A stretch of DNA of 64,000 nucleotides from a virus (Duplodnaviria > Caudoviricetes). The notes beneath the pieces were generated by a model. That model was not told the DNA's origin. It worked only from the letters and a program-made list of their open reading frames with translations, and ran no database searches. The position numbers and the translations under genes are program-made. The stretch spans positions 3,131 through 67,130 of the IMG/VR virus record IMGVR_UViG_2871760914_000003. One strand, given 5' to 3'. Below, in pieces: positions 21,397 to 42,889 of this stretch. Position 1 is the stretch's first letter. The number at the start of each line of letters is the position of its first letter.

Positions 21397-23700
21397 TTAC
21401 TTTTTGTGCGCTTCGCTTTCCGCTTTATGTAAATTGGCCGCCTTAGCCCTTTCAGCAAGGCTGTTGAAACGGCTAAGTATTTCGTCTTTGCGTGAATTGT
21501 CATCTTTGCTACTGAATGGCCGCACTAAGTCGCCGTAACAGGTGCTGCGGAACATTTTCCCTGCGATTTCTGTCTGTGTGCCACCTATCAGGCGCACGGC
21601 CAGACCGCGACTGATGATTTCGCCGCTTAAATCTCTGACCTGGCCGATCACGTTGTCGCAAGCTGTCTCAATTTTGTCTGGCCGCCGCAGCACTAAGTGT
21701 TTTTTATTTGGTTTTTCCCCCCTCAGTCGGGCCAGCAGCCGTCGCCGTTCTTTACGGCTCATCCCTTTAAGGTCGATCTCTTCCACACTTTCCGGCGGGG
21801 TTGAATCCTCAGATCTCAAACGCCCCGTACAGTTATTGACAGAACTCCGAGAGGGCGCGGGCGCGCCCTGAAGGTCAAAACCAAAATCAACGGCACGTTT
21901 CGGAACAATCTTCCACTGTGCCAGACGGGTTAAAATCGGAGTATCTGCGCCAACCTCAGTTGCGTAGACGCCCTTAATACGCACGGTTTCCTCACCGTAT
22001 TCATTCAGCTCATCGCCCGGCTGATACCAGGTGCGCACGGCCAGCTCATCACGACGCACGAACGGGCCGCCCTGCGCGTTGACGTATGCCGCCCAGTCGC
22101 CCACGTCGGCCGCGTCATGCGCAGCGGCAAACTCCACACTCAGGCCGTGGGCGGTTTCGGTGTCATCCATGCGGCGCAGCTCGCGGTAAACCGTGACCGG
22201 CGCACCTCCTACAAACTGAAACTGTCGGATATGCCAGCGTGCCGCCCAGGCAGAAACGGCGGGCGCGGTTTCCTTAAGCTCTTTACCGCTTTCGTCGTCC
22301 AGCTCGCCATCCAGCGCGTAGCCGTCGATATTCTTAGAGATATATTTAGCCACGTAACCCGTAGCGCTGCCTTTTTCCGGATCGATGGCCTCCGCATGAA
22401 AACGCGCTTTACGGGCTTTATCCGTGGTCAGCTCGTTGCTGTCCTGCTGAAAGGCATAGTCACGGATTGTCTGGCGCACCTGATCCGCATCTTCGGGACG
22501 CATAAACATCAGCATGTGCCAGTGTGGCGTTGCGTCGTGGTGAGGTTCGGCAACGCGAATGCCAAAGATTCGAATGTCATCACGGTGCAGCTTTGCGCGG
22601 ATGCGCTGCCAGACGCTGCAAAGGTAACGCTGCGTGTCTGCGGGGCTGGCACCATTCCATTTGCGGTTACGATGGCCGGTTTTGATTGTGGCGTGATAGC
22701 TTGACGGCGCGGTCAGCGTGTAAAACTCGCCGACATAGCCCAGATCATTACAGATATTTTCAAAGCCGCGAATGCGGGTCATCAGCTCACAGCGACGGAT
22801 TGCCGGATTTGCCACACTGCCGTCGTATTTCTCAATCAGGCTTATGCGGTTGCCTTCCTCGTCTTCCAGTTCCATGCCTTTTAAGAACTCACGGGTACGG
22901 CGTTTCTGCTCCCGCCATTCTGAAACCGTCATTCTGCTGGCGTAAGGCGTGTGTTTTTTGCTTACGTTAGCCAGGGCAATCTGCAGGTGTTCACGCCATG
23001 ACGCAGCCACGCGGCGCAGTCTCCCCGTCCACCATTTTTCTGTCTGCATACGCAGCACGGCGGGTGTAACTTCTTCGGGATCAAAGAAACGGGACGTCAC
23101 CTTATCCCACAGTGGCGGCGTCTGATTAAATTCACGGGTGATAGCCGCCGCTGTCATGTAGACGCGGTGCGTGTATTTATAATCTGACTCATCAGCTGCC
23201 TGCGCGTGTGCCTGTACCAGCTCGGCCAGAATGAAACTGGCAATATCACCGGCCAGCAAATCCACATCGGCACGCGACATATCGGCCAGGCGGTTAAAAC
23301 GCTTCATCAGTTCCCACAGCTGGCCTCCGGCAAGCGCTGCGCCATTCTCTTTCGGGGCGTTCTGCGCCAGCAGGTTAAAGGTGCTGGCGTCCATAGTCTT
23401 AACCCGATACTGCTCGTTAACGCATTCAACACGCGGCAATGTGCGCTCAACGAAGGTTTTCGTTAAGTACGCATTGGCGCGGGCAATGCCCTGTGATTTT
23501 TCCAGCTCGTTGACGCGACGTTTGACGTCGATTTGAATCAACGTTGGCTGCTGCTCTAGCAGCTCCTGCGCACGCACTAAAGCCGCAATCATCTGACTGC
23601 GGCTGTGCATTTCCTCATAAGTGGGATAAGGGCTTGAAATCGCCCGGCGGGGCTTGTTCCACTCATACGCCCACTCGCTAACCTTATCCTGATGGCTCAT
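21397..23700 (-). CDS. A: Rolling-circle replication initiator gpA
   Basis: HUH region EPHHDATPHWH, catalytic tyrosines YVAKYISKN, 767 aa. Confidence 0.96.
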   Translation of the reverse strand: MSHQDKVSEWAYEWNKPRRAISSPYPTYEEMHSRSQMIAALVRAQELLEQQPTLIQIDVKRRVNELEKSQGIARANAYLTKTFVERTLPRVECVNEQYRVKTMDASTFNLLAQNAPKENGAALAGGQLWELMKRFNRLADMSRADVDLLAGDIASFILAELVQAHAQAADESDYKYTHRVYMTAAAITREFNQTPPLWDKVTSRFFDPEEVTPAVLRMQTEKWWTGRLRRVAASWREHLQIALANVSKKHTPYASRMTVSEWREQKRRTREFLKGMELEDEEGNRISLIEKYDGSVANPAIRRCELMTRIRGFENICNDLGYVGEFYTLTAPSSYHATIKTGHRNRKWNGASPADTQRYLCSVWQRIRAKLHRDDIRIFGIRVAEPHHDATPHWHMLMFMRPEDADQVRQTIRDYAFQQDSNELTTDKARKARFHAEAIDPEKGSATGYVAKYISKNIDGYALDGELDDESGKELKETAPAVSAWAARWHIRQFQFVGGAPVTVYRELRRMDDTETAHGLSVEFAAAHDAADVGDWAAYVNAQGGPFVRRDELAVRTWYQPGDELNEYGEETVRIKGVYATEVGADTPILTRLAQWKIVPKRAVDFGFDLQGAPAPSRSSVNNCTGRLRSEDSTPPESVEEIDLKGMSRKERRRLLARLRGEKPNKKHLVLRRPDKIETACDNVIGQVRDLSGEIISRGLAVRLIGGTQTEIAGKMFRSTCYGDLVRPFSSKDDNSRKDEILSRFNSLAERAKAANLHKAESEAHKK
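21827..21858 (-). other. gpA origin/nick site within A (prophage 1)
   Basis: Minus strand GCGCCCTCTCG^GAGTTCTGTCAATAACTGTAC vs P2 ori GCGCCTCG^GAGTCCTGTCAATAACTGT. Confidence 0.85.
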
Positions 23701-25800: not shown

Positions 25801-26184
25801 TTACTCAGGTAAAAAACAGTCTGCGGTAGAAAACTGTCGGGGTAATATCTTTCCCCAGCGCGCCATTTTGTTCATCGCCATGATGATTAGTTCGCGGCGG
25901 TATTCGTCGAAATATTCAAACGGCTTTCCAATTTCCTCCTGTGAAAATGTTTTGGGATTTTCGCGGTTAGCCAGGGTTAACACGCAAAATTTAAACTCGT
26001 CATTCTGATGGTTGAAATAGCGCAGTGACGGGTTTGCGTTATTGTCGCGCTGCTGCCGCCAGCTTTTCCGAAACTCATCAAACGACATTTTGTTAACAGC
26101 ATCAGCACGATTGCCCGTTGAATGAGTTTTGGCAAAAGATGCCGGGCCTTGCTGTGCGGTTGTGTTACCTGTTACTCGCTGCAT
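25801..26184 (-). CDS. DUF5347-like early protein
   Basis: NPSLRYFN...FKFCVLTLANRE...FSTADCFLPE; homologues at 36161 and 62623. Confidence 0.78.
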   Translation of the reverse strand: MQRVTGNTTAQQGPASFAKTHSTGNRADAVNKMSFDEFRKSWRQQRDNNANPSLRYFNHQNDEFKFCVLTLANRENPKTFSQEEIGKPFEYFDEYRRELIIMAMNKMARWGKILPRQFSTADCFLPE

Positions 26185-27309: not shown

Positions 27310-27891
27310 ATGAAAATCAAAGAATACACTTTCGAAGCCACCGAGATTCTTGACCGTGTATGCGAAACATACGGATTTCACCAAAAAGCCCAGCTCGCGG
27401 AGTATTTCAAAATTTCGCCTAGTTCCTTATCAAACAGATACATGCGTGGAACTATTTCATATGACTTTGCAGCTATCTGCGCCTTAGAAACCGGTGCAAA
27501 TTTGCAATGGCTTCTTTTGGGTGAGGGTGAAAAATTCTCAACAGAACAACCTAAAAGTGAAGATAAAACTTTCGACTTATTCACTCTTAGTGAAAACCGC
27601 TTATCTGAAAAGTCACAATTACGGATTAGCGTAGGTTTCTTCGCGAAACAGCCTAGCAATGGCTTTGCGGTTAGGTTTTCTGGTGACCTGTATTTCATTG
27701 ATAAGGATGCAAAAATTTCTGACGGCTCATGGCTTATAGGTATTGATGACTCAATAAGTATCAGAAAGCTTACAAAGCTTCCCGGAAATAAAATCCATGT
27801 TTCTGGTGGCGCAGTTGATTTCGAATGCACGCCAGACGACCTGGAGATAATGGGCCGTGTCGTTGGGATCTATAGCGAGATGGATCAGTGA
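27310..27891 (+). CDS. cI: CI immunity repressor (186-type)
   Basis: HTH AQLAEYFKISPSSLSNRYMRG; NLQWLLLGEG; C-terminal 186 CI assembly domain. Confidence 0.92.
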   Translation: MKIKEYTFEATEILDRVCETYGFHQKAQLAEYFKISPSSLSNRYMRGTISYDFAAICALETGANLQWLLLGEGEKFSTEQPKSEDKTFDLFTLSENRLSEKSQLRISVGFFAKQPSNGFAVRFSGDLYFIDKDAKISDGSWLIGIDDSISIRKLTKLPGNKIHVSGGAVDFECTPDDLEIMGRVVGIYSEMDQ

Positions 27892-28904
27892 CAGTACGTA
27901 AAAACCCTGCCGGTGGATGGATATGTGAACTTTACCCCAACGGGGCTAAGGGCAAACGCATCAGGAAAAAATTCGCTTCAAAAGGTGAGGCTCTAGCTTT
28001 TGAACAATACACCGTACAAAACCCGTGGCAGGAAGAGCAGGAAGACAGGCGAACTTTAAAAGAGTTAGTTGACGCATGGTTCAGCGCTCATGGAATTACT
28101 TTAAAGGACGGCTTAAAGCGCCAATTGGCAATGCACCATGCATTTGATTGTATGGGCGAGCCTTTAGCGCGCGATTTTGATGCACAAATGTTTTCACGCT
28201 ATAGAGAAAGGCGTCTTAAAGGTCAGTTTGCTCGATCCAACAGGGTTAAGGAAGTTTCACCCCGTACACTCAATCTCGAATTAGCTTATTTTCGTGCGAT
28301 GTTCAACGAGCTGAATCGCCTTGGGGAATGGACCGGAGAAAACCCCTTAAAAAATATGCGCCCTTTCCGAACTACTGAAATGGAAATGGCCTGGCTGACT
28401 CATGATCAAATTTCGCTACTATTGGATGAGTGCAATCGCCATGAACATCCAGATTTAGAAAAAGTGGTCAGGATTTGCCTATCTACTGGCGCACGATGGT
28501 CTGAGGCTGAGAGCCTAAAAAAAAGCCAGATAAACAAATATAAAATAACTTATATCAATACTAAGGGTCGAAAAAATCGCACTGTTCCAATCAGCGTGGA
28601 ACTCTATGAAGCGCTCCCAGATGTTAAAAGTGGCCGACTCTTTAGTGAATGCTATGGCGCTTTCCGTTCCGCGATGGAAAGAACCGGAATTGAATTGCCA
28701 GCAGGCCAGTTAACTCATGTTTTGCGCCATACCTTTGCAAGTCACTTTATGATGAACGGCGGAAATATTTTAGTTTTGCAGCGCGTGCTTGGTCACACCG
28801 ACATTAAAATGACAATGCGTTACGCGCATTTTGCGCCCGAACATTTAGAGGATGCTGTAAAACTTAATCCACTGGCGGTAAGTGGCGATAAAGTGGCGAT
28901 GTAA
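27888..28904 (+). CDS. int: Phage tyrosine integrase (186/HP1-like)
   Basis: STGARWSE, HVLRHTFASHFMMNGG, LGHTDIKMTMRYAH. Confidence 0.97.
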   Translation: MTVRKNPAGGWICELYPNGAKGKRIRKKFASKGEALAFEQYTVQNPWQEEQEDRRTLKELVDAWFSAHGITLKDGLKRQLAMHHAFDCMGEPLARDFDAQMFSRYRERRLKGQFARSNRVKEVSPRTLNLELAYFRAMFNELNRLGEWTGENPLKNMRPFRTTEMEMAWLTHDQISLLLDECNRHEHPDLEKVVRICLSTGARWSEAESLKKSQINKYKITYINTKGRKNRTVPISVELYEALPDVKSGRLFSECYGAFRSAMERTGIELPAGQLTHVLRHTFASHFMMNGGNILVLQRVLGHTDIKMTMRYAHFAPEHLEDAVKLNPLAVSGDKVAM

Positions 28905-28905
28905 A

Positions 28906-28952
28906 TGGCAAATATTGGCAAGGTTTTGGCAAATAGTGGCAAACTATGTCAA
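28906..28952. repeat. TGGCAA repeats at ~10 bp period in the att arm (Apl sites)
   Basis: TGGCAA at 28906, 28916, 28927, 28937 and TGTCAA at 28947; same hexamer as the pR/pL array, opposite strand. Confidence 0.8.
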
Positions 28953-28996
28953 TGATTAATAAGCTAAAGCATTGATTTACCGTTCTATCTCTAGGA

Positions 28997-29042
28997 ACTC
29001 ATAATCGCTTGGTCGCTGGTTCAAACCCAGCAGGGGCCACCA
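28997..29042 (+). repeat. att core: 3' fragment of tRNA-Ile(CAT)
   Basis: ACTCATAATCGCTTGGTCGCTGGTTCAAACCCAGCAGGGGCCACCA; anticodon loop, T arm and CCA present, 5' half absent. Confidence 0.93.
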
Positions 29043-29089
29043 AATTTATCAATAAGTTAGCATCAACTCTGCGCCACTCCAAAATATTC

Positions 29090-29108
29090 GGGGATACCTC
29101 GGGGATAC
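29090..29108 (+). repeat. Integrase arm-type repeats GGGGATAC x2
   Basis: Same motif recurs at 38918-38955 at the other end of the island. Confidence 0.7.
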
Positions 29109-29182
29109 ACCAAAATACTCACATTCTCGCTTGGCCCCTGCTTTCTATATGAATCTTGGCAGTCGATGACCGTTAAAAAAAT

Positions 29183-29629
29183 TTAAAATCGGTCAAATTC
29201 ATTGTATTCATCACTCTTGTTACTCGAACCGCCACGGAGAGAACTAAGAGGATCAAGGCCAAGCATTGAACCTGCGCGAATGAGTTGGCTAAAAGCAATA
29301 TTCCTAGCAGCGAAGACTGGGTTAGTTTTCTCGCCACCATTTCCGCCCTCACCAGCAAGCCCACGGCTCGCCGTCATCGTTTTAGCTTTCTCCGTGATAG
29401 AGCTATCGGCCTCTACAATGTAATGCCAAGCATTGCAGTACAGAATCAGTAGTAAATGATGTTCAGGCTCGAACGTACCACGTTCAAAGAGAATTTTGGC
29501 ATTCTTGCTCCAAACCTCTTCCGCAACCGGACTGAGTAATCCAAAGGGAGGCTGAATTTGTGATGCTCGCTTGTTAGCGATTGGAACGACATTTTTCTTA
29601 CGCCCTGCCCCACTTGCTCGAATAGACAT
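29183..29629 (-). CDS. P27-family terminase small subunit
   Basis: ASGAGRK...PPFGLLSPVAEEVW...LFERGTFE..LILYCNAW...NPVFAARN..FSQL...LGLDPLS. Confidence 0.82.
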   Translation of the reverse strand: MSIRASGAGRKKNVVPIANKRASQIQPPFGLLSPVAEEVWSKNAKILFERGTFEPEHHLLLILYCNAWHYIVEADSSITEKAKTMTASRGLAGEGGNGGEKTNPVFAARNIAFSQLIRAGSMLGLDPLSSLRGGSSNKSDEYNEFDRF

Positions 29630-29703
29630 ATAACCTCCAATCGATAGGTAGAACTTAAGAATTGATCATGATTAAGAGGAGAAAGCTGGGAGAAAAATTT
29701 GAT

Positions 29704-29780
29704 CCTTAATTCGTGTGCATAAAAATACGATGAGGCGGGCAGTACAATGAATTCTAGGTCAAAAACTCTCACCCTACCCT
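29704..29780 (-). other. Putative HK97/P27-type cos region upstream of terS
   Basis: Minus strand AGGGTAGGG...ACTGCCCGCCTC..ATTTTTATGCACACGAA, resembling from memory the motif preceding terS in P27/SfV-type phages; not verified by search. Confidence 0.5.
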
Positions 29781-29969
29781 ACAACGTCAATACTCATAGC
29801 AAATCGTTCACAAACTTTATAGGTTAATTATAAATAGCTTTGTAGAAAACATGTCTAGATTTGAGAATAACTAACAAATCAAAATAATAATAACAAATAA
29901 CATTTCATAATTTATCCGAGCCGTTCCTCAACTTGAACGGCTCAAGAAAACGTTACTATAAATATTAAT

Positions 29970-31997
29970 TTATAATTTTCTTATTAGCTTCCCTTCATCT
30001 TTATTAAAGGAAACAATTGTATACTCATAACCATCTAAAGCATTCACAAGAACACTTTCGTCTTCTGATGTAGCAAAAATAATTTGCCCATTGATTTTTG
30101 TAGATTCAGCAGCATCTTTAAGCAATTCTGCGAAGCTAACCTTGTTTGCCTCTTGTTGCCTTGGCTCATCAAATATAATAATTCCAGGGTGATTTGTATT
30201 GAATGCCTGACCTAAAGAAAACAAACTAATCAAATATCCCCAAATAATTCGAATGCCATCACTTGCAGAGGTATCAAAACCGATATCATAACCTTCTCTA
30301 TTAGGTAAGTAGTTATCTTCTGAGATACCAATTAACTCCGAGTCAAAACTAGTGAAGTTGTATTTCTTCAACCGTTCAACGACACCATTTTTCAAATGAA
30401 GTAATTTCTTTGCATCTTCTGCTGAAAGAATTCGCTCAGGAAATGAACGTCTTTCCGATGTCAGCTTTTTATATTTCTTATGTAGTGAATCTAATTCCAA
30501 CCGAATATCCGTGATATCTCTTACCGCATCATCAATATCATTGATTGAATTTTCTAAATTTATTTTATGTCTTAAATACTCTTCTTGCATTGCTAAAGAT
30601 GGGTAGTCTGTATTTTTTAATTTATTTATCTCACTTTTAAGCGTTGCAATTTTTGACTCGGTTCGTCTTTGCTCTGCTTCCTTAAACTTCAATTGACCAT
30701 TACAATCCGACAATACAAAGTCAAACGCTTTTATCTGCTCTTTAATAAATACCAAACTACTTTCGTATGTCATAAGATTTTCTTGAGATGAGAAATCCAA
30801 GAGATTATCATTATATTGCCCTCCACAAGTAGGGCATTCGTTTGATAGTAATTTAGTGGACTCATACACTGATGAATCTGAGATTTTCTTTAAGTCTTCA
30901 TATTTCTTCTTATCATCTAAAAGATTTTCCAGTCTCTTTTTTGTAGAAATTATCTGATAATTAATATAGCTTTTATGATCACTAATATCTTGTAAAACTT
31001 GCTCTAAAGCGTGAACCTCATCAACTTTAGAACTAATTTTTCTTTGCACTGACAATTGCAAAGCTTCATCATCAAAATTGCTCAATGCATTAGTTTCTAA
31101 GAGATTTAATTCAATAGAAAATTCCGTTCTCAATTCAACTAACGACTTTATTTTGTCACCTTCTTTGATGACAAGATCAATCTTATAATTATCAAATTTT
31201 GATTCGGGTTGTTCAGGTATTCCAGTAACTACTGCTGATACTTTTGAAGCAACTAATTCAGCATTACGCCGAATCAGTTTCCAATGATTTGATATCTCAT
31301 CAATACTATTTTTTAATGCACTTCTCTTCAAAATATTTTCATTTACATTTAGAGCCATCAAAAATTCTAGCGCTCTTTTTTTAGCCTCCTTAATACCAAA
31401 CTGTGTTGGTATTGTAGCCATTATCGATGCCCATCCTTTTTTCTGCTCTACATACCACGCAGGGAAAAGTACAGAGGGGTAAAGGATGGTATCTTTGCCA
31501 CTATGATTGGGCACCAGAGGAAGCACCCAACCAATAAATTTAGAAAGCCACTTATAAAACCCCATATCACGGTCAGTATCTCCTTCACGATGAAGGAAAT
31601 ATGAGCCACTCTTCATGGAATTGTCGTCCTCATTAACTTCCTCAATGTAGACTATATTGTCACTTTCAAACCCTATTATGTTCCGCTTTAGAGAGGCGTT
31701 ATTACCATCATGATTTTTTATTTTTAACAACACATATGATGATATTACTTTTACTTCTTTTCCATCAGCTGTAGTTAAAGCTCTTGTAAGTGAGGGAGGA
31801 AATGGAATTTTCGCAGCACCGACTCCTAAAGCTTTTTCCATACCTAATGCGTAGGCTATAGCGTTCATGCAAGTGGATTTACCATGAGAGTTTTCCACTC
31901 TCAGTAAAAATAAACCCTTCGAAAATGGGATGGATACGCCGTAACGTCCATCGGTAGTATTTGCAACAATTTCTAATGAAATTATCTCTAATGACAT
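29970..31997 (-). CDS. Lamassu/ABC-3C SMC-like ATPase (LmuB-like)
   Basis: Walker A ENSHGKST, coiled coils with central CPTC, signature SASDG, Walker B IIIFDEPRQ. Confidence 0.88.
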   Translation of the reverse strand: MSLEIISLEIVANTTDGRYGVSIPFSKGLFLLRVENSHGKSTCMNAIAYALGMEKALGVGAAKIPFPPSLTRALTTADGKEVKVISSYVLLKIKNHDGNNASLKRNIIGFESDNIVYIEEVNEDDNSMKSGSYFLHREGDTDRDMGFYKWLSKFIGWVLPLVPNHSGKDTILYPSVLFPAWYVEQKKGWASIMATIPTQFGIKEAKKRALEFLMALNVNENILKRSALKNSIDEISNHWKLIRRNAELVASKVSAVVTGIPEQPESKFDNYKIDLVIKEGDKIKSLVELRTEFSIELNLLETNALSNFDDEALQLSVQRKISSKVDEVHALEQVLQDISDHKSYINYQIISTKKRLENLLDDKKKYEDLKKISDSSVYESTKLLSNECPTCGGQYNDNLLDFSSQENLMTYESSLVFIKEQIKAFDFVLSDCNGQLKFKEAEQRRTESKIATLKSEINKLKNTDYPSLAMQEEYLRHKINLENSINDIDDAVRDITDIRLELDSLHKKYKKLTSERRSFPERILSAEDAKKLLHLKNGVVERLKKYNFTSFDSELIGISEDNYLPNREGYDIGFDTSASDGIRIIWGYLISLFSLGQAFNTNHPGIIIFDEPRQQEANKVSFAELLKDAAESTKINGQIIFATSEDESVLVNALDGYEYTIVSFNKDEGKLIRKL

Positions 31998-31998
31998 A

Positions 31999-32463
31999 TC
32001 ATCCTACCTGAAATATTTTATTAATGTTAGTTTCGGATAACTCTTTTTTATACTTTATTAGTTTAAAACGTTCATCCTTGAATACCTCAAGTGCGATAAG
32101 TTTAGCTACGCACAATTCACCCTTCTCGGAGATTTTGAACTTATCATTATCTCTTATAATAAAACCTTCATCCAATAATAATTCAATTGCCCTATCAAGA
32201 GTTGGATCCATACGAACTTCAGGCCTAATACTTTCTTTATTGAACGTCCAAACCTCATAGCTTGTACTATTATGATCGGATTTTAAAACCCAATTAACCA
32301 CATGAAGTTTCTTCAAAGAGCAGCAACCAGAACGTCCAACCAGAGAAAAAACTATCAATACTAGACTACAACGCCATAATGGTCTCATGTCACAAGGCAG
32401 AAGCTCTGGTCTTTTTGTAAAAGTAAAAGGTTTATTGATAACTTCTTCAATTGTAATGTTCAT
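31999..32463 (-). CDS. Lamassu/ABC-3C middle component (LmuC-like)
   Basis: 154 aa between effector and ATPase; SLKKLHVVNW...RMDPTLDRAIELL winged-helix-like pattern. Confidence 0.75.
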   Translation of the reverse strand: MNITIEEVINKPFTFTKRPELLPCDMRPLWRCSLVLIVFSLVGRSGCCSLKKLHVVNWVLKSDHNSTSYEVWTFNKESIRPEVRMDPTLDRAIELLLDEGFIIRDNDKFKISEKGELCVAKLIALEVFKDERFKLIKYKKELSETNINKIFQVG

Positions 32464-32476
32464 ATGATTATCTACC

Positions 32477-33397
32477 TTAAAAATCTAATGGGCAACGTAT
32501 CAGCCAGTCAGAAATAACGCCCCATGTGATTTTTTCAAGATCTGCCTGTTTGAAAGTTGGAACTTCTTCTTCAATGCATCTCTTCAGCGATTCAATATGT
32601 TCAGTCATAATTCCAGATGGTTGTGCATCTGAAGGCGCAAGCATGAACGTACCAACTAAGTTATTCTCTCGTTGCTGTATGCACTTATAAACTACTTCAT
32701 AGATATCAACCCAATTTGTCTTGAGCGTGTCTAATAAATTTTGATAATCGAGAAACTTTTGAATTAAAAAATTCCTGATCTGTTCTTGCCTTGAAAGTGA
32801 ATCATTTATTTTTGGTAGTTTTAAATTTAACTTTTCAAGAAAAGAACTATTACTACTGATGAAATCAATTGCACCTTCAATTGTCGTATCATTGAGTTCT
32901 AAACTCAGTTGATAAGACTCTTTACGTAAAGCAAATGACTCTTGAATGTAATTCTTCTCGGTTTGAACAATAATTTGAAAATCATCACTTACATATGAAA
33001 GTCCTAAATCTCGAACTTTTAATGATTTAGTAGTGCAATACTGACTGAGCTTAGATGATTTATTGAACGGTGTGGCCAAAATCCAGCGACTGATTTTTAG
33101 GCTGCCAAAAAGTTCTTTAAGTTCTTTAACATTAGTTTTAGAGAACTTTTCAATATCGTTATAGATTTTCTTTCGTTGAGCTTTATAAAGCTTATCAATA
33201 TCACTCGATTGCTCAGGTAAATAACATTGAAAAACGTGTCCTTCCAAAGTGTAGCATTCAAGACCAAAATCTCCGCCATGCGAGTCGGGTAGGTCGCAAC
33301 AGTTTGCGGGTTTATAGTGAAGCCAGATAATGCTTTTGAAATATGATTCCCATGCTTTGGGGTCGCTGTGAGGGTCAGTTCGCATTTCCAAGTCCAT
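32477..33397 (-). CDS. Lamassu/ABC-3C effector, PD-(D/E)xK-type nuclease plus CTD (LmuA-like)
   Basis: HGGDFGLE..VFQCY nuclease motif; C-terminal WGVISDWLIRCPLDF typical of ABC-3C CTDs; start likely MDLEMR at 33397. Confidence 0.8.
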   Translation of the reverse strand: MDLEMRTDPHSDPKAWESYFKSIIWLHYKPANCCDLPDSHGGDFGLECYTLEGHVFQCYLPEQSSDIDKLYKAQRKKIYNDIEKFSKTNVKELKELFGSLKISRWILATPFNKSSKLSQYCTTKSLKVRDLGLSYVSDDFQIIVQTEKNYIQESFALRKESYQLSLELNDTTIEGAIDFISSNSSFLEKLNLKLPKINDSLSRQEQIRNFLIQKFLDYQNLLDTLKTNWVDIYEVVYKCIQQRENNLVGTFMLAPSDAQPSGIMTEHIESLKRCIEEEVPTFKQADLEKITWGVISDWLIRCPLDF

Positions 33398-33741
33398 TGA
33401 AAAAATTTTACGCCAGTATAACCCCTTGTTCTTAAGGGCGTAAATAAAACTGGCTATAAATCCGACACCTACTGGAAAAGATTTTAAAGCACTAAATGAG
33501 CTGAACTGCTCATCAAAAGCATCAATTTGGCTTACTAAAAATCCCTGGTGCAGCATAAAACTTACCCCAACTGGTTGGTCAGCGGCATTTATGGCACTTG
33601 ATAGATTAACGATCAATCTCATGCTACTCATCTGTCTAAACCTAGCGGATTGCTCTCACCAATCATTTAAATCAAAGAGATTTTTCACAGCAGATTTAAG
33701 TATCAAGTCACCACATCGAATGCCTCTCATCATAGCAAGCA

Positions 33742-33757
33742 CTGTATATAAATACAG
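33742..33757. promoter_or_regulatory. LexA box
   Basis: CTGTATATAAATACAG, near-perfect consensus, between gpA and the Lamassu operon. Confidence 0.88.
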
Positions 33758-34054
33758 CTTAAATTTTAATTACATAGTCTGAGAAAATTGACGAAAAGAA
33801 CTCATGTCTATGATATTAAAGTTTAATTTTATGATTAACGTCCATCATACCTCCCATGGTCTTTGAAAGTTTGTGAGTTATCTCTGACAAAAGGTTGGTT
33901 CTAAGGTCAAATCTGAGATGTAAAAGCGACCAATTAAGTCTTGAAAATTTTCGACTAACCAAACAAAAGTTCACAAGCCATTTGTGCAATATGTAAGCAC
34001 TAAAACCGCTTTCATTTCGTTGATTGAAGGCCGGTAGTTCTAAATTCTCTAACA

Positions 34055-36139
34055 TTAGGAGCTATTCCAATGGTCGATTTCGCCGCTTGGAAGAACAGGA
34101 TTTAGATTACATTTAAGTGGATCCGTACAGTTATTGTCAGAACTCCAAGAGGCCGCATTCGCGTCCTGAAGGTCAACCGCCAAGCCAACCACCTGCTTTG
34201 GCACCAGCTTCCACTGACTTACACGAGTGAGGATGTGGGAATCACCACCAGCGGTTAAAGTCTGCAACCCCTTTAGACGCACAACCTCTTCACGATATTC
34301 ATTCAGGTAATCATCAGGCTGATACCAAGGCCGCACCACCAGCCCATCACGATGCACAAACGGGCCACCTTGCGCTTTGATGTAGCCCGCCCAATCGCCT
34401 GCATCAGCCGCATCATGTGCCTTAGCAAATTCAGGGCTTATACGTTGAGCGGCGGCGCTATCAGCCATTCGCCGTAGCTCACGATAAACAGTAACCGGCG
34501 CACCACCGATGAACTGAAACTGCCGGATATGCCAAAGCGAAGCCCATGCCGAAACCGCTGATGCTGTGCCCTTCAACGGTTTCCCGCTTTCATCGTCCAG
34601 CTCTTCATCAAGCGCATAGCCATCAATGTTTTTGGCGATGTATTTAGCGATGTAGCCCGTTGCACTTCCTTTGTTGGGATCGATGTTCTCAGCATGAAAG
34701 CGAGCCTTGCGAGCTTTGTCCGTTACTAACTCCTCGGCGTGCTCCTGATATGCGTATTCACGCATGATCATGCGCAAGCGTTCTACATCAGTTGGCAGCA
34801 TGAACAGCAGCAAGTGCCAATGCGGCGTTGCATCGTGATGAGGTTCAGCAACGCGAATGCCGAAAACACGGATTTTTTCGCGCTGTAGTTTGGCGCGAAT
34901 CTTCTGCCAAAGCTTGCAGAGATAAAGCTGGGTTTCAGTGGGGCTAGACCCGATCCATTTGGGATTAAAATGCCCAGTGTTGATGGTTGCGTGGTAACAA
35001 GAAGGGGCCGTTAGTGTGCAGAACAGGCCAACATAGCCCATCTCATTACTGATATTTTCAAAGCCACGGATTCGCGTCATTAGTTCGCAACGACGAATAG
35101 CTGGATTAGCAACACTGCTTTCGTAAGCATCAATCAGATTGATGCGGTTGCCCTCCTCGTCTTCTAGCTCCATGCGTTCAAGGTAATCGCGCTCACGCCG
35201 TTTTTTTTCATACCAATCAGACACTGCCATGCTGCTGGCGTAGGCATTGTGTTTTTTGCTAACGGTGCCAAGTGCGATTTGCAAATGTTCTTGCCATGAT
35301 TCCGCGATGTGCCGTAATCGCCCACTCCACCATTTAGGTGAGAGCATGTGTAGGATTGCGGATTCGACTTCACTGGGTTCGAAGCGTTTTTGAGTGACCA
35401 GATCCCACTTGCAAGGGACCTGTTTTAACTCCCGTGTGATAGCCGCCACCGCCATGTAGTTATGATGTAACTGGTGATATTCCGAGCAAGCTAAGCGACT
35501 GCCTAGCCCCATCACCTCATTCACATAACATGCGATGTCATTAGCTAGCCGTTCAATGTCCGCACGGCTCATCTCATGAAGGCGATTAATACGACGCTTC
35601 AGATCTACCAGTCGACCAAGCAAATGTGCAGCAGCCGTTGCACTCTGAGCGATGGTAAAACACTGCATGCGAACTGCTTCGCTGACGTCATCTAAGCGAT
35701 AACTCACGTTCACGCTTTCTATACGCGGCAACAGACTTTTTTTGACGTTATCGATCAAGTAAGCAGCAGCGCTGGCAATACCGTTCGCGCTTTCTCGCGC
35801 AGAGAGACGGCGTTCGATCTCAGTGCGAACGAATTTTGGAAGCTTGCCAAGAACCTCACGCTTCTGAGATGAGAACGTATTTCGTGCCACAGCATCTAGA
35901 ACGAACTGATGGTTACGGCGATAGATCTCAACATACGTTGGATATGGGCTGGCGATTGCCTTTCGCGGATAATTCCATGGGTATGCATACGTCTCATGGC
36001 ACACGCTCCCAACCCCATTATATGGGGTGCTCGTATGTACCAGGTTATCGACGTTCAAGCCATCATGATTCGGCTTGATATATACATTGCGCATTGCAGT
36101 GATCCTATTTTTGGGCAAAGGGAAACCCGGCGGGTTCAC
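34055..36139 (-). CDS. P2 gpA-type rolling-circle initiator (C-terminally short)
   Basis: YPWNYPRKAIASPY, EPHHDATPHWH, YIAKYIAKN; ends ~25 codons after the ori; start uncertain (36094 or 36139). Confidence 0.9.
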   Translation of the reverse strand: MNPPGFPLPKNRITAMRNVYIKPNHDGLNVDNLVHTSTPYNGVGSVCHETYAYPWNYPRKAIASPYPTYVEIYRRNHQFVLDAVARNTFSSQKREVLGKLPKFVRTEIERRLSARESANGIASAAAYLIDNVKKSLLPRIESVNVSYRLDDVSEAVRMQCFTIAQSATAAAHLLGRLVDLKRRINRLHEMSRADIERLANDIACYVNEVMGLGSRLACSEYHQLHHNYMAVAAITRELKQVPCKWDLVTQKRFEPSEVESAILHMLSPKWWSGRLRHIAESWQEHLQIALGTVSKKHNAYASSMAVSDWYEKKRRERDYLERMELEDEEGNRINLIDAYESSVANPAIRRCELMTRIRGFENISNEMGYVGLFCTLTAPSCYHATINTGHFNPKWIGSSPTETQLYLCKLWQKIRAKLQREKIRVFGIRVAEPHHDATPHWHLLLFMLPTDVERLRMIMREYAYQEHAEELVTDKARKARFHAENIDPNKGSATGYIAKYIAKNIDGYALDEELDDESGKPLKGTASAVSAWASLWHIRQFQFIGGAPVTVYRELRRMADSAAAQRISPEFAKAHDAADAGDWAGYIKAQGGPFVHRDGLVVRPWYQPDDYLNEYREEVVRLKGLQTLTAGGDSHILTRVSQWKLVPKQVVGLAVDLQDANAASWSSDNNCTDPLKCNLNPVLPSGEIDHWNSS
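34125..34150 (-). other. gpA origin/nick site (island)
   Basis: Minus strand TCTTG^GAGTTCTGACAATAACTGTAC. Confidence 0.8.
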
Positions 36140-36160
36140 GCCATAATTTTGTTAAATCGG

Positions 36161-36448
36161 TTACTCGTTAATGAATCGGTCTGCCGTCGAGAAGTACGGA
36201 GGCATCGCTTTGCCCATCTGCGACAACTCGTTCATTGCCTGAATCAGCAGCCATCGCTGTTGCTCGCTGAAACGCTCAAACGGCAAGCCAATGTCAGAGA
36301 TTTTAAAGGTGCCACGAGCTATCAGATTTGCTTGGCTAATCACTGATAACTGACAATGAGCATCAAGACTGTCGTAATAACGCATTGAGTGGTTTTTGTT
36401 GCGAATGGTCTGATCACGGTAAGTTCTCTGAAACTCAGCATGATTCAT
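36161..36448 (-). CDS. DUF5347-like early protein
   Basis: IGLPFERFSEQQRWLLIQAMNELSQMG...YFSTADRFINE, similar to 25801 and 62623 ORFs. Confidence 0.7.
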   Translation of the reverse strand: MNHAEFQRTYRDQTIRNKNHSMRYYDSLDAHCQLSVISQANLIARGTFKISDIGLPFERFSEQQRWLLIQAMNELSQMGKAMPPYFSTADRFINE

Positions 36449-36586
36449 CGCCGTTGCACCCAACAAGTGACCGTGAACCGGACTGCCCCACGGATCAGGC
36501 TGTAGCTTGTGATGTTTGCTAGCAGAATGATTGCGCATACATTCTCCTCACCTGAATTCACTGGGTTGATCTGATTGTTAGAGCCG

Positions 36587-36835
36587 TTAGAAGGGCTGGC
36601 GAACAGAGTCCAGGAAGGCATCAAGATCGGACTGGCGGTAGATGGTTTTTTTCTTGCCGACTTTGTAGAAGGGAATTTTGACGCGGCCCGAACTGTGCCA
36701 GTTGGCAAGGGTGCGGGTGGCGACGCCGATATACTCAGCGGCCTCTGGGCGGGTGAACTTGCGTTCGTTGAGAATGGAGTTGTTCATGAATGCACCTTGA
36801 TGATCATTAATTAACGCAATGTCACTATGGTGCAT
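36587..36835 (-). CDS. AlpA/excisionase-like HTH protein
   Basis: TRPEAAEYIGVATRTLANW...FYKVG...YRQSDLDAFL. Confidence 0.85.
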   Translation of the reverse strand: MHHSDIALINDHQGAFMNNSILNERKFTRPEAAEYIGVATRTLANWHSSGRVKIPFYKVGKKKTIYRQSDLDAFLDSVRQPF

Positions 36836-36869
36836 CTGAAATAATCTAAAAAGGGGTGAAAGTGTACTT

Positions 36870-37499
36870 TCACCCCTGATTTCTTCTTGGAAAAACTAAT
36901 TTGAAATCCTTGCTTGGGCCTTTCCCTGCCACATTTTTATCTGGACCCAATTCGTGTAGAGCAATCCAATCTTTCAAAGCCGATTTACTTACAGATGGTC
37001 CAAACTCATCCTTTAACTTTTTAATCATTTGCCTCTTAGAGGCATGCTTATTTTTATCCCAAGTTGCTATCATTATATCTAAGATCTCAGGGTAAAGTTT
37101 ATGTTTGGGACCACTTGCATTTTTCCTTCGCTTATCACTATCTTCAGCCTTGTAATTTTCATCCATAAATTCAATAAAATGTGACTGAAGGAGATTTAAC
37201 TTCAACTCAATCAAAGATAGCTTTTCCGCCATTAGTTCATAACCTAATAGTGCAAAGCAGTGACTAGCATGTGATAACGTTTTTACGTCTTCGGATGGAG
37301 TCTGAGAATATTTAAGCTTGTCCGAAAATGTCGCAAGCATGTCGACCAACTCTTTTACTCCCTCCTCATTCAAATTAGGACCAGCAATACTAAAAACCTT
37401 CCGCATTTTTCTTTTCTTAATTTCAGCATTTAAAGCATCAAAGTAATTCTTAAAACGCGGATCTACCTCATTTTCTTCTTGCACCTTTAGCTTCCTCAT
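36870..37499 (-). CDS. Hypothetical protein
   Basis: 209-aa low-GC ORF overlapping the integrase stop; possible C-terminal HTH. Confidence 0.65.
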   Translation of the reverse strand: MRKLKVQEENEVDPRFKNYFDALNAEIKKRKMRKVFSIAGPNLNEEGVKELVDMLATFSDKLKYSQTPSEDVKTLSHASHCFALLGYELMAEKLSLIELKLNLLQSHFIEFMDENYKAEDSDKRRKNASGPKHKLYPEILDIMIATWDKNKHASKRQMIKKLKDEFGPSVSKSALKDWIALHELGPDKNVAGKGPSKDFKLVFPRRNQG

Positions 37500-38892
37500 T
37501 TGGATTCAGAATTGAAAACAGAAGCTCTCGTTTCATGTCATCACTCATGGAACCGAAAGCCGCTGATAGCTGAGCATCCAGCCCACCAGCCTTCTCAACC
37601 AGCCCCGCATGCTCCAAAATCGTCTGCTCGATCTTCTTCGCTGGCTCTTGCAGTTCATCAGCGGAGAAATGCAGATAACCCTGCGTTACATCAGCGCTAC
37701 GCAATGTGCGGTGGTTCATTAGCCGCTTGAGTATGTATGAACCAACCCCGGTTAACTCAGCAACGCTACCAAAGGTGCGGCGGGCATCATGACAGGTGAA
37801 TTCGATGGGATGTTCGGTGCCATCTTTCCCCGTTTCAGCCGTGATCAGGTTGATGATGCGGCGTGGCTCTTGAATCATCCCGCCCTTGGCTCCTGCGAAT
37901 ACATAGCGCTCATTGCCTTTGCGCTGCTTCTTGCGGCGGTCAAAAATTTGGTAGAGCGTATTGGTTATTGGTAGCTCAAGCGGATCACCGTTCTTAGTCT
38001 CATCGATCCAGAAATAGCGACCGCTTAGATTGACGCGCGACCACTCCAAACCGAAGACTTCTGAACGACGTAAGCCTGTAAACAGAGCCACATCCAGCGC
38101 ATCGCATACCGCAACAGCAAAAACGTCTTTGATAGAAAGCGAATACTGTCGAACTACATCGACGGAGGAGAGCCAGCGGGCAAGCTCGTTGTTACGAATG
38201 CGGCTAGTGCGGCGATGGGTGCCATGCCATTTGCGTTTGCTGCTAAATACCATTGTGGGCGGATCAGGCAGTAAGCATTTGCCCTCAGCATCGCGGTAGT
38301 GATCGTGTGAATAGCGATAAACAGCGCGCAGCGCTCGCGCCCATAAATCAGCTTGGGCTTTGCTTCCGCTTGCTACGCGAGAACGACTTGGTGTGTCTCC
38401 AAACCAAACACTCCCTTCTGTTATCGCTTTATGGCGGGTTTCAACTCGAGTCCTGTCGATTGAAGCCAACGGCTTACCGAACCAGTCCTTTGAGAAGTTT
38501 TGGAGAATGGATTTGTACTGCTTCGCCGTGGTGGCTTTCAGCCGATCACCACGAGATTTGATGTATTGATCGAATGCCTCAGAAAGCGTTACAACCGCTC
38601 TTGCGCTTTCTCGCCGCCCTTCGTTTGGATTCTTGCGCGTAGAGGCAACTTCACCGATGGCATGTGATGCTAGGTCACGGGCTTGATCAACAGTTAGGTC
38701 GGGAAACTTACCAAGGGTTACTCGGAAGAACTTACCGTCACGTTTTCGGGTAACGCAGAAGCTTTTAGCACCCGCAGCCGTAACACGCAGACGAAGGCCA
38801 TTAACAACGCTATCGGCATACTCTTCGCGCTTGCCTTCTGGAGCAGGCAATAATTGCCCGATTGCGGCTTTGGTAAATCTAAAAGTTTTCAC
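37468..38892 (-). CDS. P4-type tyrosine integrase with arm-binding domain
   Basis: GLRLRVTAAGAKSF..VTLGKFPDLTVDQAR arm domain; TGLRRSE, HDARRTFGS, LMNH, TQGY. Confidence 0.95.
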   Translation of the reverse strand: MKTFRFTKAAIGQLLPAPEGKREEYADSVVNGLRLRVTAAGAKSFCVTRKRDGKFFRVTLGKFPDLTVDQARDLASHAIGEVASTRKNPNEGRRESARAVVTLSEAFDQYIKSRGDRLKATTAKQYKSILQNFSKDWFGKPLASIDRTRVETRHKAITEGSVWFGDTPSRSRVASGSKAQADLWARALRAVYRYSHDHYRDAEGKCLLPDPPTMVFSSKRKWHGTHRRTSRIRNNELARWLSSVDVVRQYSLSIKDVFAVAVCDALDVALFTGLRRSEVFGLEWSRVNLSGRYFWIDETKNGDPLELPITNTLYQIFDRRKKQRKGNERYVFAGAKGGMIQEPRRIINLITAETGKDGTEHPIEFTCHDARRTFGSVAELTGVGSYILKRLMNHRTLRSADVTQGYLHFSADELQEPAKKIEQTILEHAGLVEKAGGLDAQLSAAFGSMSDDMKRELLFSILNPNEEAKGARRK

Positions 38893-38917
38893 GTCGTTAC
38901 CTGAAAAATTGCTCTGT

Positions 38918-38955
38918 GGGGATACTCTGGGGATTCCGGGATACCCCGGGGATTC
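38918..38955 (+). repeat. GGGGAT(A/T)C arm-type repeats x4, ~10 bp period
   Basis: Copies at 38918, 38929, 38938, 38948 between integrase start and att. Confidence 0.72.
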
Positions 38956-39064
38956 CGTAAATAGGTCATTTTGGGTAAGTATAGTGATATACCAACACCC
39001 GTCAAACTCCCGCCATTACTGACTTCTCCATAAACGTGACACATAGGTAATTATTGGATCTGAA

Positions 39065-39110
39065 ACTCATAATCGCTTGGTCGCTGGTTCAAACCCAGCA
39101 GGGACCACCA
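39065..39110 (+). repeat. Second att core (tRNA-Ile 3' fragment)
   Basis: 45/46 identical to 28997-29042. Confidence 0.93.
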
Positions 39111-39136
39111 GATTTAGTGATGAAAATCATTCAGTT

Positions 39137-39162
39137 AAGCCACCTCGCAAGGGTGGCTTTTT
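39137..39162 (+). terminator. Intrinsic terminator-like hairpin after att
   Basis: AAGCCACC-TCGCAAG-GGTGGCTTTTT. Confidence 0.7.
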
Positions 39163-39209
39163 CGTTTTTAGAATTCGTCATTGGTCGTAAAATACCAGAT
39201 ATAGATCTT

Positions 39210-40101
39210 CTCAAACGGCCGAGACGGCAGAAGGATTCGCCGCCAGTTTGCGATGAAGGGCGGAGCACAATCCTATGAGAAATTCATAAAAGAACAGGCT
39301 CAAGATAAGCCCTGGTTGGGAGATAAAGCAGATAAGCGGCGAACCATAATGGCTTTTGCCTGCGAGGCAATGGGAAACCCACTCGCAACCGATTTTAACG
39401 CAAAAATTTTTGCTTCTTATCGTGAGCAGCGATTACGCGGCAAAATTACCTGCTCCAACCGAGTGAAGACGGTTACGCCGCGCACAGTAAATTGAGAACT
39501 GGCGTATTTCAGAGCAATTTTTAACGAGTTGCGCCGGTTAGATGAATGGACCACGCCAAATCCGCTTGAGAACGTACGAGTGTTTAAGATTAGTGAATCA
39601 GAGATGGCGTATCTCACTATTGAGGAAATTAGAACCCTCCTCGCCGAATGTGAGAACAGCCGATCTAAAGATCTGACGACCATTGTGAAAATCTGCCTGG
39701 CAACTGGCGCACGATGGAGTGAAGCTGAAGGCTTGAAGGGGAACCAAATCCGCGCCGGTCAGATCATCTACGTTAAAACTAAAGGCAAGAAAAACCGAGC
39801 GGTGCCGATAACTGAAAAATTACAGGCTGAACTGCCATCGAGCAGGAAAGCGCAGTTGCTCTTTAAACCATGCTATTCAGCCTTTAGAAAGGCTATGCAA
39901 CGCGCCGGCATCGAGACACCTGCTGGGCAGCTGACGCATGTTTTACGACACACCTTCGCGTCTCATTTCATGATGAACGTCTCGTACTTCAGCGGATATT
40001 GGGGCATACAGATATTAAGGTGACGATGCGATATGCGCACTTGGCACCGGATCATTTGTCTGAGGCCTTGAGGCTTAATCCCTTGAGTATAATGGACTAA
40101 A
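39210..40101 (+). pseudogene. P2-family integrase pseudogene
   Basis: NGRDGRRIRRQFA N-terminal remnant; in-frame TGA at 39493; frameshift after HFMMN; LGHTDIKVTMRYAH continues in another frame. Confidence 0.9.
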
Positions 40102-42757: not shown

Positions 42758-42889
42758 GTACAGTTATTGCCATTGTCCCCCAAGGGCCCGCGCCCTACCC
42801 GCCGTACAGTTATTAACAGAACTCCAAGGGCCCGCGCCCTACCCGCCGTACAGTTATTAACAGAACTCCCAGAGGCCGCTGTCGCGCCC
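42758..42889 (-). repeat. Three tandem copies (46/44-bp period) of the P2 gpA nick-site/ori sequence, outside any A gene
   Basis: GTACAGTTATT starts at 42758, 42804 and 42848; copies 2 and 3 contain GTACAGTTATTAACAGAACTCC; copy 1 degenerate. Confidence 0.9.

Follow-up and report, generated by a model that had tools for sequence, protein, structure and literature searches.

A PICI-like Island Family of Pantoea with a Putative P2/186-Type Rolling-Circle Replicon in Place of a Primase-Helicase

Location and Gene Content of the Island

The 64,000-nt stretch of viral DNA analyzed here (hereafter the window) covers positions 3,131 to 67,130 of the IMG/VR record IMGVR_UViG_2871760914_000003 and is part of a 67-kb provirus record. 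It contains an island of about 10 kb, located between a 186/P2-like prophage (prophage 1; positions 1-28904) and a tailocin cluster right of 43278. The island genes are all encoded on the minus strand and comprise, in this order, a tyrosine integrase gene, a gene for a protein of 209 amino acids (aa), an alpA-like regulator gene, a gene for a 125-aa protein, a P2/186-type gpA gene, the cargo genes and, behind a cos-like block, the small terminase gene terS. Among the ten main island open reading frames (ORFs) scanned against Pfam and PHROGs, none matched large terminase (TerL), capsid, portal, tail, holin or lysis genes. The first-pass annotation, a reading of the bare sequence, had described an int-alpA-replication-cargo-terS layout; every module was found to be present and intact, except for one domain label that is dealt with below. 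With a probability of roughly 60%, the island belongs to a small family of Pantoea satellites resembling phage-inducible chromosomal islands (PICIs), in which the primase-helicase replicon was replaced by a 186/P2-like module of the 125-aa gene, gpA and its ori.

The island is bounded by 53-nt direct repeats at 28996-29048 and 39064-39116 (plus strand), which are identical at 51 of 53 positions, with the first 40 nt matching exactly. Their start-to-start spacing is 10,068 bp. An att-bounded island of this length with arm sites at both ends had been claimed before, and this was confirmed, with the repeats extended to 53 nt; the ends proposed earlier, 29043 and 39110, occupy corresponding sites within the repeats. 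The repeat corresponds to the 3' 47 nt of tRNA-Ile(CAU) (ileX/ileY type), from the anticodon loop to CCA, plus 6 nt, and its core matches the annotated attP/ileY (attP/attB) core of phage 186. The left copy doubles as attR of prophage 1. The right copy, with two mismatches, is followed by the native tRNA flank with a terminator hairpin at 39137-39159, and the 51-bp flank 39117-39167 recurs at the chromosomal flank of a related island in the Pantoea metagenome-assembled genome (MAG) G001.

Both att copies are partial tRNA sequences, and ARAGORN detected no tRNA either in the window or in the 3.2 kb at the start of the record; the intact tRNA-Ile is located beyond the provirus record. In the relative L005, the island directly adjoins the intact tRNA. 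Since neither core of the window is a whole tRNA, and since the island integrase and the 186-like prophage use the same tRNA-Ile(CAU) 3' end, the locus is a tandem array in the order intact tRNA (beyond the record), prophage 1, core, island, core and native flank.

Candidate arm-type integrase sites were located next to both cores. On the TerS side, two GGGGATAC repeats (29090..29108, plus strand) are present, which are kept at the end of the relative L006. The int-side arm (38918..39005, minus strand) is nearly invariant in five islands and carries three GGGGATWC motifs and one GGGATAC (38918-38955) as well as a promoter-like TTGACG-16-TATACT sequence (39005-38978). All five occurrences of GGGGATWC in the window (29090, 29101, 38918, 38929 and 38948) flank the two cores, lying within about 60 bp of the left core and about 150 bp of the right core, and these repeats are conserved in the four relatives aligned. 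This placement is consistent with arm-type sites used by the integrase of the island itself.

Integrase and Regulatory Genes

The integrase gene (37468..38892, minus strand) encodes a P4-type tyrosine integrase with Arm-DNA-bind_3 and Phage_integrase domains (phrog_1). Across the islands, its nucleotide identity is 93-97%, with a ratio of nonsynonymous to synonymous substitution rates (dN/dS) of 0.05-0.14. Its end is overlapped by the gene of the 209-aa protein (36870..37499, minus strand), a putative regulator or recombination directionality factor. This gene, of about 205 aa in the relatives, diverges fast (19-86% identity between islands) and forms a second variable spot of the backbone; a C-terminal three-helix domain resembling a helix-turn-helix (HTH) is conserved between islands. 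By hhalign, the protein was related to a protein of the island in Pantoea genome G019 (98.8% probability). In the AlphaFold model, the helices of residues 136-181 reached a predicted local distance difference test (pLDDT) score of 84-91 at an overall pLDDT of 69. A Foldseek search of the PDB with this model gave no match at E ≤ 0.001, and searches of Pfam (E ≤ 10), NCBIfam and PADLOC gave sub-threshold HTH matches only.

A hairpin terminator with an 11-bp stem (36852..36877, minus strand) divides the int/209-aa operon from the operon led by alpA. The AlpA-like regulator of the HTH_17/excisionase family (36587..36835, minus strand; Pfam HTH_17, 2e-8; phrog_66) probably has 66 aa (36587-36787), following the calls in relatives, and is encoded on the same strand as int and the replication genes. 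The Pfam model Phage_AlpA itself did not match it.

A 186/P2-Type Replication Module

The gpA gene (34055..36139, minus strand) encodes a rolling-circle initiator of the P2/186 HUH family (Pfam Phage_GPA, PF05840, 4e-108; 361.6 bits versus a cut-off of 31.4; phrog_91). From the first GTG, the protein has 694 aa; its relatives are called at 667-703 aa. The catalytic motifs are intact, i.e., the HUH motif H440-W-H442 and the tyrosines Y496 and Y500, and they are invariant in comparison with the other two gpA genes of the window. The protein shares 92% identity with gpA of the L005 island, 59% with that of prophage 1 and 55% with that of the tailocin cluster. Only one other gpA cluster exceeded 61% identity, and identity to any prophage gpA found was about 60%. 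Between islands, gpA showed a dN/dS of 0.23-0.32.

The putative ori with the gpA nick site, CTCTTGGAGTTCTGACAATAACTGT (34127..34151, minus strand), lies inside the 3' end of gpA, at a position homologous to the annotated nick sites of P2 (29892) and 186 (28576). A stretch of 22 nt from CTTGG to ACTGT is identical in three islands, and the site differs from that of prophage 1 in 2 of 25 nt. No second ori-like site was found within the island. The earlier claim of a P2-type HUH gpA with intact motifs and its own ori is thus borne out as far as motifs and a nick-site homologue can indicate. Neither Pfam nor PHROGs revealed a primase or helicase domain in the island. Elsewhere in the window, further gpA nick-site-like sequences flank the tailocin cluster (42806-42874 and 60261-60285).

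Upstream of gpA, the gene 36161..36538 (minus strand; phrog_17301) encodes the 125-aa protein, a putative replication accessory factor. It is homologous to the product of the prophage 1 gene 25801-26184 (hhalign probability of 100%, 38% identity), and its remote homologues are found in the 186-like early operon, between cII/fil and DUF2732 and upstream of gpA. Since the 125-aa/gpA pair is homologous to 186-like early genes, the replicon of the island amounts to two genes taken from the early operon of a 186-like phage. The 125-aa protein is seldom encountered: a set of 5.8 billion proteins contained three close clusters, and one of 1.84 billion contained eight representatives. The dN/dS of its gene between islands is 0.12-0.39. 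No Pfam match was obtained even at E 10, nothing significant was found in NCBIfam or PADLOC, the AlphaFold model (pLDDT of 78) had no Foldseek match in the PDB at E ≤ 0.001, and peptide-pattern scans of IMG/VR gave no match.

The first-pass annotation had labeled this gene DUF5347-like (PF17282). The label had to be abandoned, with no Pfam match and an hhalign probability of 9% against the DUF5347 protein of L021; DUF5347 takes the equivalent position in another Pantoea prophage and is a positional analogue only. The A protein of P2 prefers to act in cis, and for lagging-strand synthesis P2 depends on gpB. By analogy, the 125-aa protein may have an accessory role comparable to that of P2 gpB.

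TerS, a cos-Like Block and the Predicted Helper

At the other end of the island, terS (29183..29629, minus strand) encodes a 148-aa small terminase of the P27 family (Pfam Terminase_4, 47.1 bits versus a cut-off of 24.7; phrog_83) and is not followed by a large terminase gene. The expectation of a P27/HK97-type TerS without TerL or capsid was therefore correct. The score against NCBIfam TIGR01558 (30.4 bits) was under the cut-off of 45.6. Between islands, terS showed a dN/dS of 0.09-0.17, and a peptide-pattern scan for TerS found one locus in genome contigs and none in IMG/VR. The best phage match was TerS of Yersinia phage YeP1 (MK733259), with 49% identity. A 108-aa ORF (29446-29772), which overlaps terS and the cos-like block in another frame, had no family match and is probably not a gene.

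The cos-like block upstream of terS (29630..29782, minus strand) consists of a G-run, GTACTGCCCGCC (29745-29734) and ATTTTTATGC...CGAATTAAGGATC. It is conserved in every island examined, in the pattern of a G-run, about 30 nt, (G/T)(G/A)ACTGCCCGCC and then TCGTATTTTTAYGC...AAATAAGGATC. The block recurs, with an identical 10-mer ACTGCCCGCC, in an island of Pantoea sp. SOD02 with a D5-type primase. The 10-mer and its flanking motifs are likewise identical in a prophage of another Pantoea species, where they lie between an HNH-like gene and a TerS-TerL pair whose TerL has TerL_ATPase and TerL_nuclease domains. YeP1 has a genome of 39.5 kb that codes for a tail sheath as well as a protease and capsid of the HK97 type, with terS at the genome start. 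When its record termini were joined, they aligned to the cos-like block, with the junction exactly where the others have TGCCCGCCTC, as would be expected of a cohesive-end site. The deposited YeP1 termini (L009:1-70 and the end of L010) lack about 10 nt, which are TGCCCGCCTC in relatives, as if one cohesive end had been lost on deposit.

Since the cos-like block matches that of the Pantoea HNH-TerS-TerL prophage and the YeP1 termini, the sequence points to an HK97/P27-type cos phage as the predicted helper, and not to the adjacent 186-like prophage. No non-coding DNA common to the island and prophage 1 was found, similarity to prophage 1 and the tailocin cluster being confined to gpA and the 125-aa gene. 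The P2 cos 19-mer was absent from the whole window, including prophage 1. Because the cos of prophage 1 could thus not be located by the 19-mer, the statement that the island is devoid of a P2-type cos rests on the lack of shared non-coding DNA. No TGT-N12-ACA late-promoter site was found near terS.

Several family members carry tandem pairs of Terminase_4 terS genes (L005:9495-10447, L037:9519-10447 and L039:10001-10902); in L005, the two copies are 78% and 65% identical to the single copy of the window. Tandem TerS copies may widen the range of helpers or of interference targets.

The Cargo Slot between ori and cos

The cargo of the island is a Lamassu operon (29970..33631, minus strand; GC content of 32-37%), which was identified by PADLOC and encodes the SMC-like ATPase LmuB (29970-31997; 8.8e-92), LmuC (31999-32463; 5.2e-21) and the effector LmuA (32477-33631, with a likely start at 33397; 6.6e-29). 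A 79-aa ORF (33816..34055, minus strand) without a match in Pfam, PHROGs, PADLOC or NCBIfam lies in the same variable region, outside the conserved backbone. Homology between islands stops 1-3 nt past the ori motif and restarts about 10-20 nt before the cos G-run; since the backbone homology breaks and resumes there, the cargo slot spans exactly from ori to cos. The slot starts 22 nt beyond the nick site, which could mean that gpA-mediated strand transfer aids cargo exchange. Between gpA and lmuA, a palindromic TGT-N12-ACA word, TGTCAGAGATAACTCACA (33872-33889), has the form of a P2 Ogr/Delta site and may be due to chance.

A Family of Islands in Pantoea

All close relatives of the island originate from Pantoea. 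At least six further Pantoea islands at the same tRNA share the order int, ~205-aa gene, alpA, 125-aa gene, gpA, cargo, cos and terS, so that the synteny proposed in the first-pass annotation is not confined to the window. One of them, L005, was found in G001, with the same gene order and the same cores; the further members come from Logan and ENA contigs. The backbone blocks are 80-94% identical at the nucleotide level (L005, L006, L007/L037, L008 and L039/L040), and the backbone amounts to about 5.6 kb. With an overall dN/dS of 0.05-0.39, it is under purifying selection. The unit lengths are 8,994, ~10,013, 10,068, 10,274 and ~14,000 bp.

Six different cargo sets were found across the family. 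In addition to the Lamassu operon of the window, these are Hachiman in L005, which also has two tandem terS genes; a gene for a 1327-aa protein in L006; a reverse transcriptase, an AAA_15/21 ATPase and Hachiman in L007, L037 and L038; three unassigned genes in L008; and STM3845 with a reverse transcriptase in L039 and L040. In a megablast search of the island against E. coli genomes and phages, matches were limited to the att core and the Lamassu region (72% identity). Two Logan contigs run exactly from core to core, each end reaching 28-29 nt into the repeat. These contigs were rejected as proof of a circular form, since such ends are expected at any de Bruijn-graph repeat and equally from the integrated form.

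Ancestry of the Modules

Relatives of the integrase arm outside the family were found at eight IMG/VR loci (L027-L034), with 56-74% identity of the integrase and 50-82% identity of AlpA, and in Pantoea genome G019 (L024:11943-16924; integrase identity of 59%). The ~205-aa gene was recognizable at seven of the eight IMG/VR loci. Two kinds of replicon were recognized in eight of these nine relatives: L027, L028, L029 and L031 have Zn_Ribbon_Prim-Toprim_3-DUF927 primase-helicases (DUF927 only in L031), and L030, L033, L034 and G019 have an AAA_25 helicase replicon. Neither gpA nor a TerS of this type was present in any of the nine. L027 additionally contains a tail assembly chaperone-like gene and a tape-measure/SLT-like gene.

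For the opposite arm, the closest TerS outside the family (62% identity) is encoded in Pantoea sp. SOD02 (CP102604; L035:3485-10447). The gene order of this island is int, a 238-aa gene, Phage_AlpA, a 122-aa gene and a D5-type primase-helicase gene, followed by a cargo of Hcp and Tlde1 (type VI secretion system); it ends with the same cos block and TerS. Between them, islands with this int/AlpA arm or this cos/TerS arm use at least four different replicons. Since both arms are homologous to those of primase-type islands, the island is assigned by its flanking modules to the PICI lineage, with its replicon apparently exchanged for the 125-aa/gpA pair of a 186-like phage. The hybrid reading of the first-pass annotation agrees with these homologies, i.e., the outer arms with primase islands and the 125-aa/gpA pair with 186-like prophages.

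Neighboring Elements

Prophage 1 encodes a gpP-type TerL (13885-15651), its own gpA (21397-23700) and an Int_N-type integrase (27888-28904); dam, cII and a CI repressor gene are also present. Its 186-type arm repeats are located left of the core at 28880-28945 and fit the 186 arm-site consensus YAYCGCCAYTY. On the other side of the island, about 400 bp right of the right core, a truncated P2/186-type integrase fragment (39529-40023; 164 aa, catalytic domain only) contains a 47-nt stretch with 77% identity to the prophage 1 int gene. No third att core follows this fragment.

Comparison with Known Satellites

Described satellite families (P4-like, PICI, cf-PICI, PLE and PICMI) use primase-helicase or RepA-type initiators. 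Full-text searches of the literature on Pantoea PICIs and on satellites with gpA, HUH or rolling-circle replication yielded no described satellite with a Phage_GPA replicon, and no described family with the combination of modules found here, in agreement with the first-pass annotation.

Among the closest known systems are Gram-negative PICIs of the EcCICFT073 type (Fillol-Salom et al. 2018; PMC6092414). As in these, the island has a size of about 10 kb, a specific att site (tRNA or other), int at one end, a co-directional AlpA-type regulator, its own replicon, a slot for accessory or defense cargo, and cos and/or terS, without structural or lysis genes. The replicon is different: in PICIs, a pri-rep module is followed on its 3' side by an iteron origin, whereas the island has an HUH gpA with the predicted origin inside the gene and the 125-aa protein. 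Unlike PICIs, the island has both its own TerS and a cos block and no recognized capsid-morphogenesis, Rpp or Ppi-type gene. Capsid-morphogenesis and interference families gave no Pfam or PHROGs match, with the unannotated 209-aa, 125-aa and 79-aa proteins remaining candidates.

With P4, the island has in common an Arm-DNA-bind_3 integrase at a tRNA, an AlpA/Vis-like regulator, a defense hotspot and the location beside a P2-like prophage. It differs in lacking Pfam or PHROGs matches to sid, psu, delta, epsilon and the alpha primase as well as a P2-type cos, and its TerS belongs to an unrelated family. In contrast to capsid-forming PICIs (cf-PICIs), it is devoid of its own capsid, portal, protease, head-tail connectors, TerL and HNH genes. 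The PICMI elements of Vibrionaceae (PMC10803314) and the marine VEIMEs (PMC9618062) resemble the island in minimal gene content, the absence of capsid remodeling and a defense or host-protective cargo; their rolling-circle-like concatemers are packaged into full-size heads, which for the island is a proposed model only. PICMI and the island both have a gene overlapping int. PICMI elements are integrated next to fis, with an int-iolg-alpA-primase core and no terS or recognizable cos/pac, whereas the island uses tRNA-Ile, gpA and terS; the hosts differ as well.

In comparison with the replication module of P2 and 186, the island has a protein of the same Phage_GPA family with HUH and paired tyrosines and the nick-site homologue at the equivalent position. 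The island gpA differs in that the protein ends just after the ori and in that two bases of the predicted nick site are substituted. Early genes of the 186 type that would intervene, i.e., those for DUF2732, a DksA-type zinc finger, DUF5405 and a methylase, are missing.

Proposed Life Cycle and Alternative Explanations

From the gene content, helper dependence and induction, control by AlpA, gpA activity, packaging and transfer are inferred as satellite behavior, and the following sequence of events is proposed. The P4-type integrase, acting at the GGGGATWC arm sites, would insert the island into the 3' end of tRNA-Ile(CAU). Upon helper infection or induction, the AlpA-like regulator would turn on excision and the alpA-125-aa-gpA operon; AlpA-controlled Gram-negative PICIs provide a precedent (PMC6092414). 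gpA would then nick its own ori in the 3' end of the gene, and rolling-circle replication would yield concatemers. The island TerS is supposed to bind the adjacent cos block and to recruit TerL from an HK97/P27-type cos phage, probably together with the HNH protein of that phage, whereupon the island DNA would be packaged, probably as multimers. Anti-phage genes, in this case Lamassu, would occupy the slot between ori and cos as exchangeable cargo. Three to four units (36-42 kb) match the genome size of the phages with the nearest TerS (36-40 kb). Because of this fit and because no capsid-size gene was found, multimer packaging is the simplest model. Packaging of concatemers without capsid remodeling was shown for PICMI (PMC10803314) and VEIMEs (PMC9618062). 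The full version of the model, in which the family is a functional, undescribed satellite lineage that co-opted a P2/186-type HUH initiator and uses its own TerS and cos to fill unmodified HK97/P27-type heads with concatemers of about four units, is put forward tentatively, at clearly less than even odds. Since the tRNA site and the replication chemistry are common to the island and 186-like prophages, there may be cross-talk with resident 186-like prophages, either by att competition or by one gpA acting on the ori of the other.

Several points weigh against a satellite of the PICI type. Excision, replication and encapsidation of the island are predicted from sequence. In the carrier G001, a MAG that may be incomplete, neither a TerL_ATPase match nor a Terminase_4 TerS outside the island was found; therefore, the helper would have to come from outside, as does the helper of PICMI (PMC10803314). 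The island TerS is just 45-49% identical to any phage TerS found, and no capsid-size or interference gene was recognized. The PICI model of SatelliteFinder has five core components, i.e., integrase, regulator, primase-replicase, capsid morphogenesis and TerS (PMC10085698); with three of the five, the island would count as Type C, which the authors of that study treat as uncertain and set aside. The family is also rare, with one carrier among 75 representatives of Pantoea species and some 25 protein copies among 15 billion. Finally, gpA of L039 and L040 has an in-frame TGA where the others have Cys (about codon 243), and in the same two islands the int-adjacent gene is split into 55 and 129 aa. 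This state was seen in two independent samples (L039:5048-7072 and L040:2957-4981).

An alternative that we consider unlikely is an integrative defense island that is not mobilized by phage. The cos/TerS module would then be a packaging decoy against HK97/P27-type phages or a leftover, and gpA would merely amplify the excised island with its defense cargo in the course of an infection. The always defense-like cargo, the failure to find a helper in G001 and a capsid-size gene in the island, and the tandem TerS of some islands, which could widen interference, are in line with this explanation. Against a decoy speaks that the cos-like block is kept together with TerS across three different replicons and also in a real prophage cos: such a block is needed for packaging in cis and not for a protein decoy. 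Moreover, the same backbone with a different cargo in each strain at one att site requires horizontal spread, and the Pfam and PHROGs scans found no conjugation or mobilization gene that could provide it.

A P4-like satellite of the adjacent P2/186-type prophage, packaged by a P2-type terminase, would explain the tandem arrangement with a 186-like prophage at the same tRNA and the homology of gpA and the 125-aa gene to genes of prophage 1. This explanation is very improbable, since DNA similarity to prophage 1 and the tailocin cluster is limited to precisely these two genes and no cos-type block is shared. In addition to the missing P2 cos and TGT-N12-ACA site, the terminases belong to different families (P27 for the island TerS, gpP-type for the prophage), the P4 functions sid, psu, delta and alpha are not represented by any capsid-size, late-activator or primase family match, and the L005 island stands alone at its tRNA without a P2-like neighbor.

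Hardly credible is a one-off deletion relic of two decayed prophages, to which the mixed phage ancestries of the modules, the truncated 186-type integrase fragment and the nonsense codon in gpA of one related lineage might point, since the att arms and arm sites are conserved, all backbone genes of the window island are intact and under purifying selection, and no fewer than six other islands have the same backbone and boundaries while carrying other cargo.

Implications

The PICI-like satellite with an exchanged replicon thus remains the favored interpretation, and a description as a PICI-lineage variant with a swapped replicon suits the island better than one as an entirely separate family. 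Satellite backbones are modular, as this island family shows, and tools keyed on primase-replicase markers would classify the island as uncertain. The slot between ori and cos represents a further hotspot of defense genes. With its backbone of about 5.6 kb, the island offers a compact natural system for the question of whether rolling-circle concatemers suffice without capsid remodeling.

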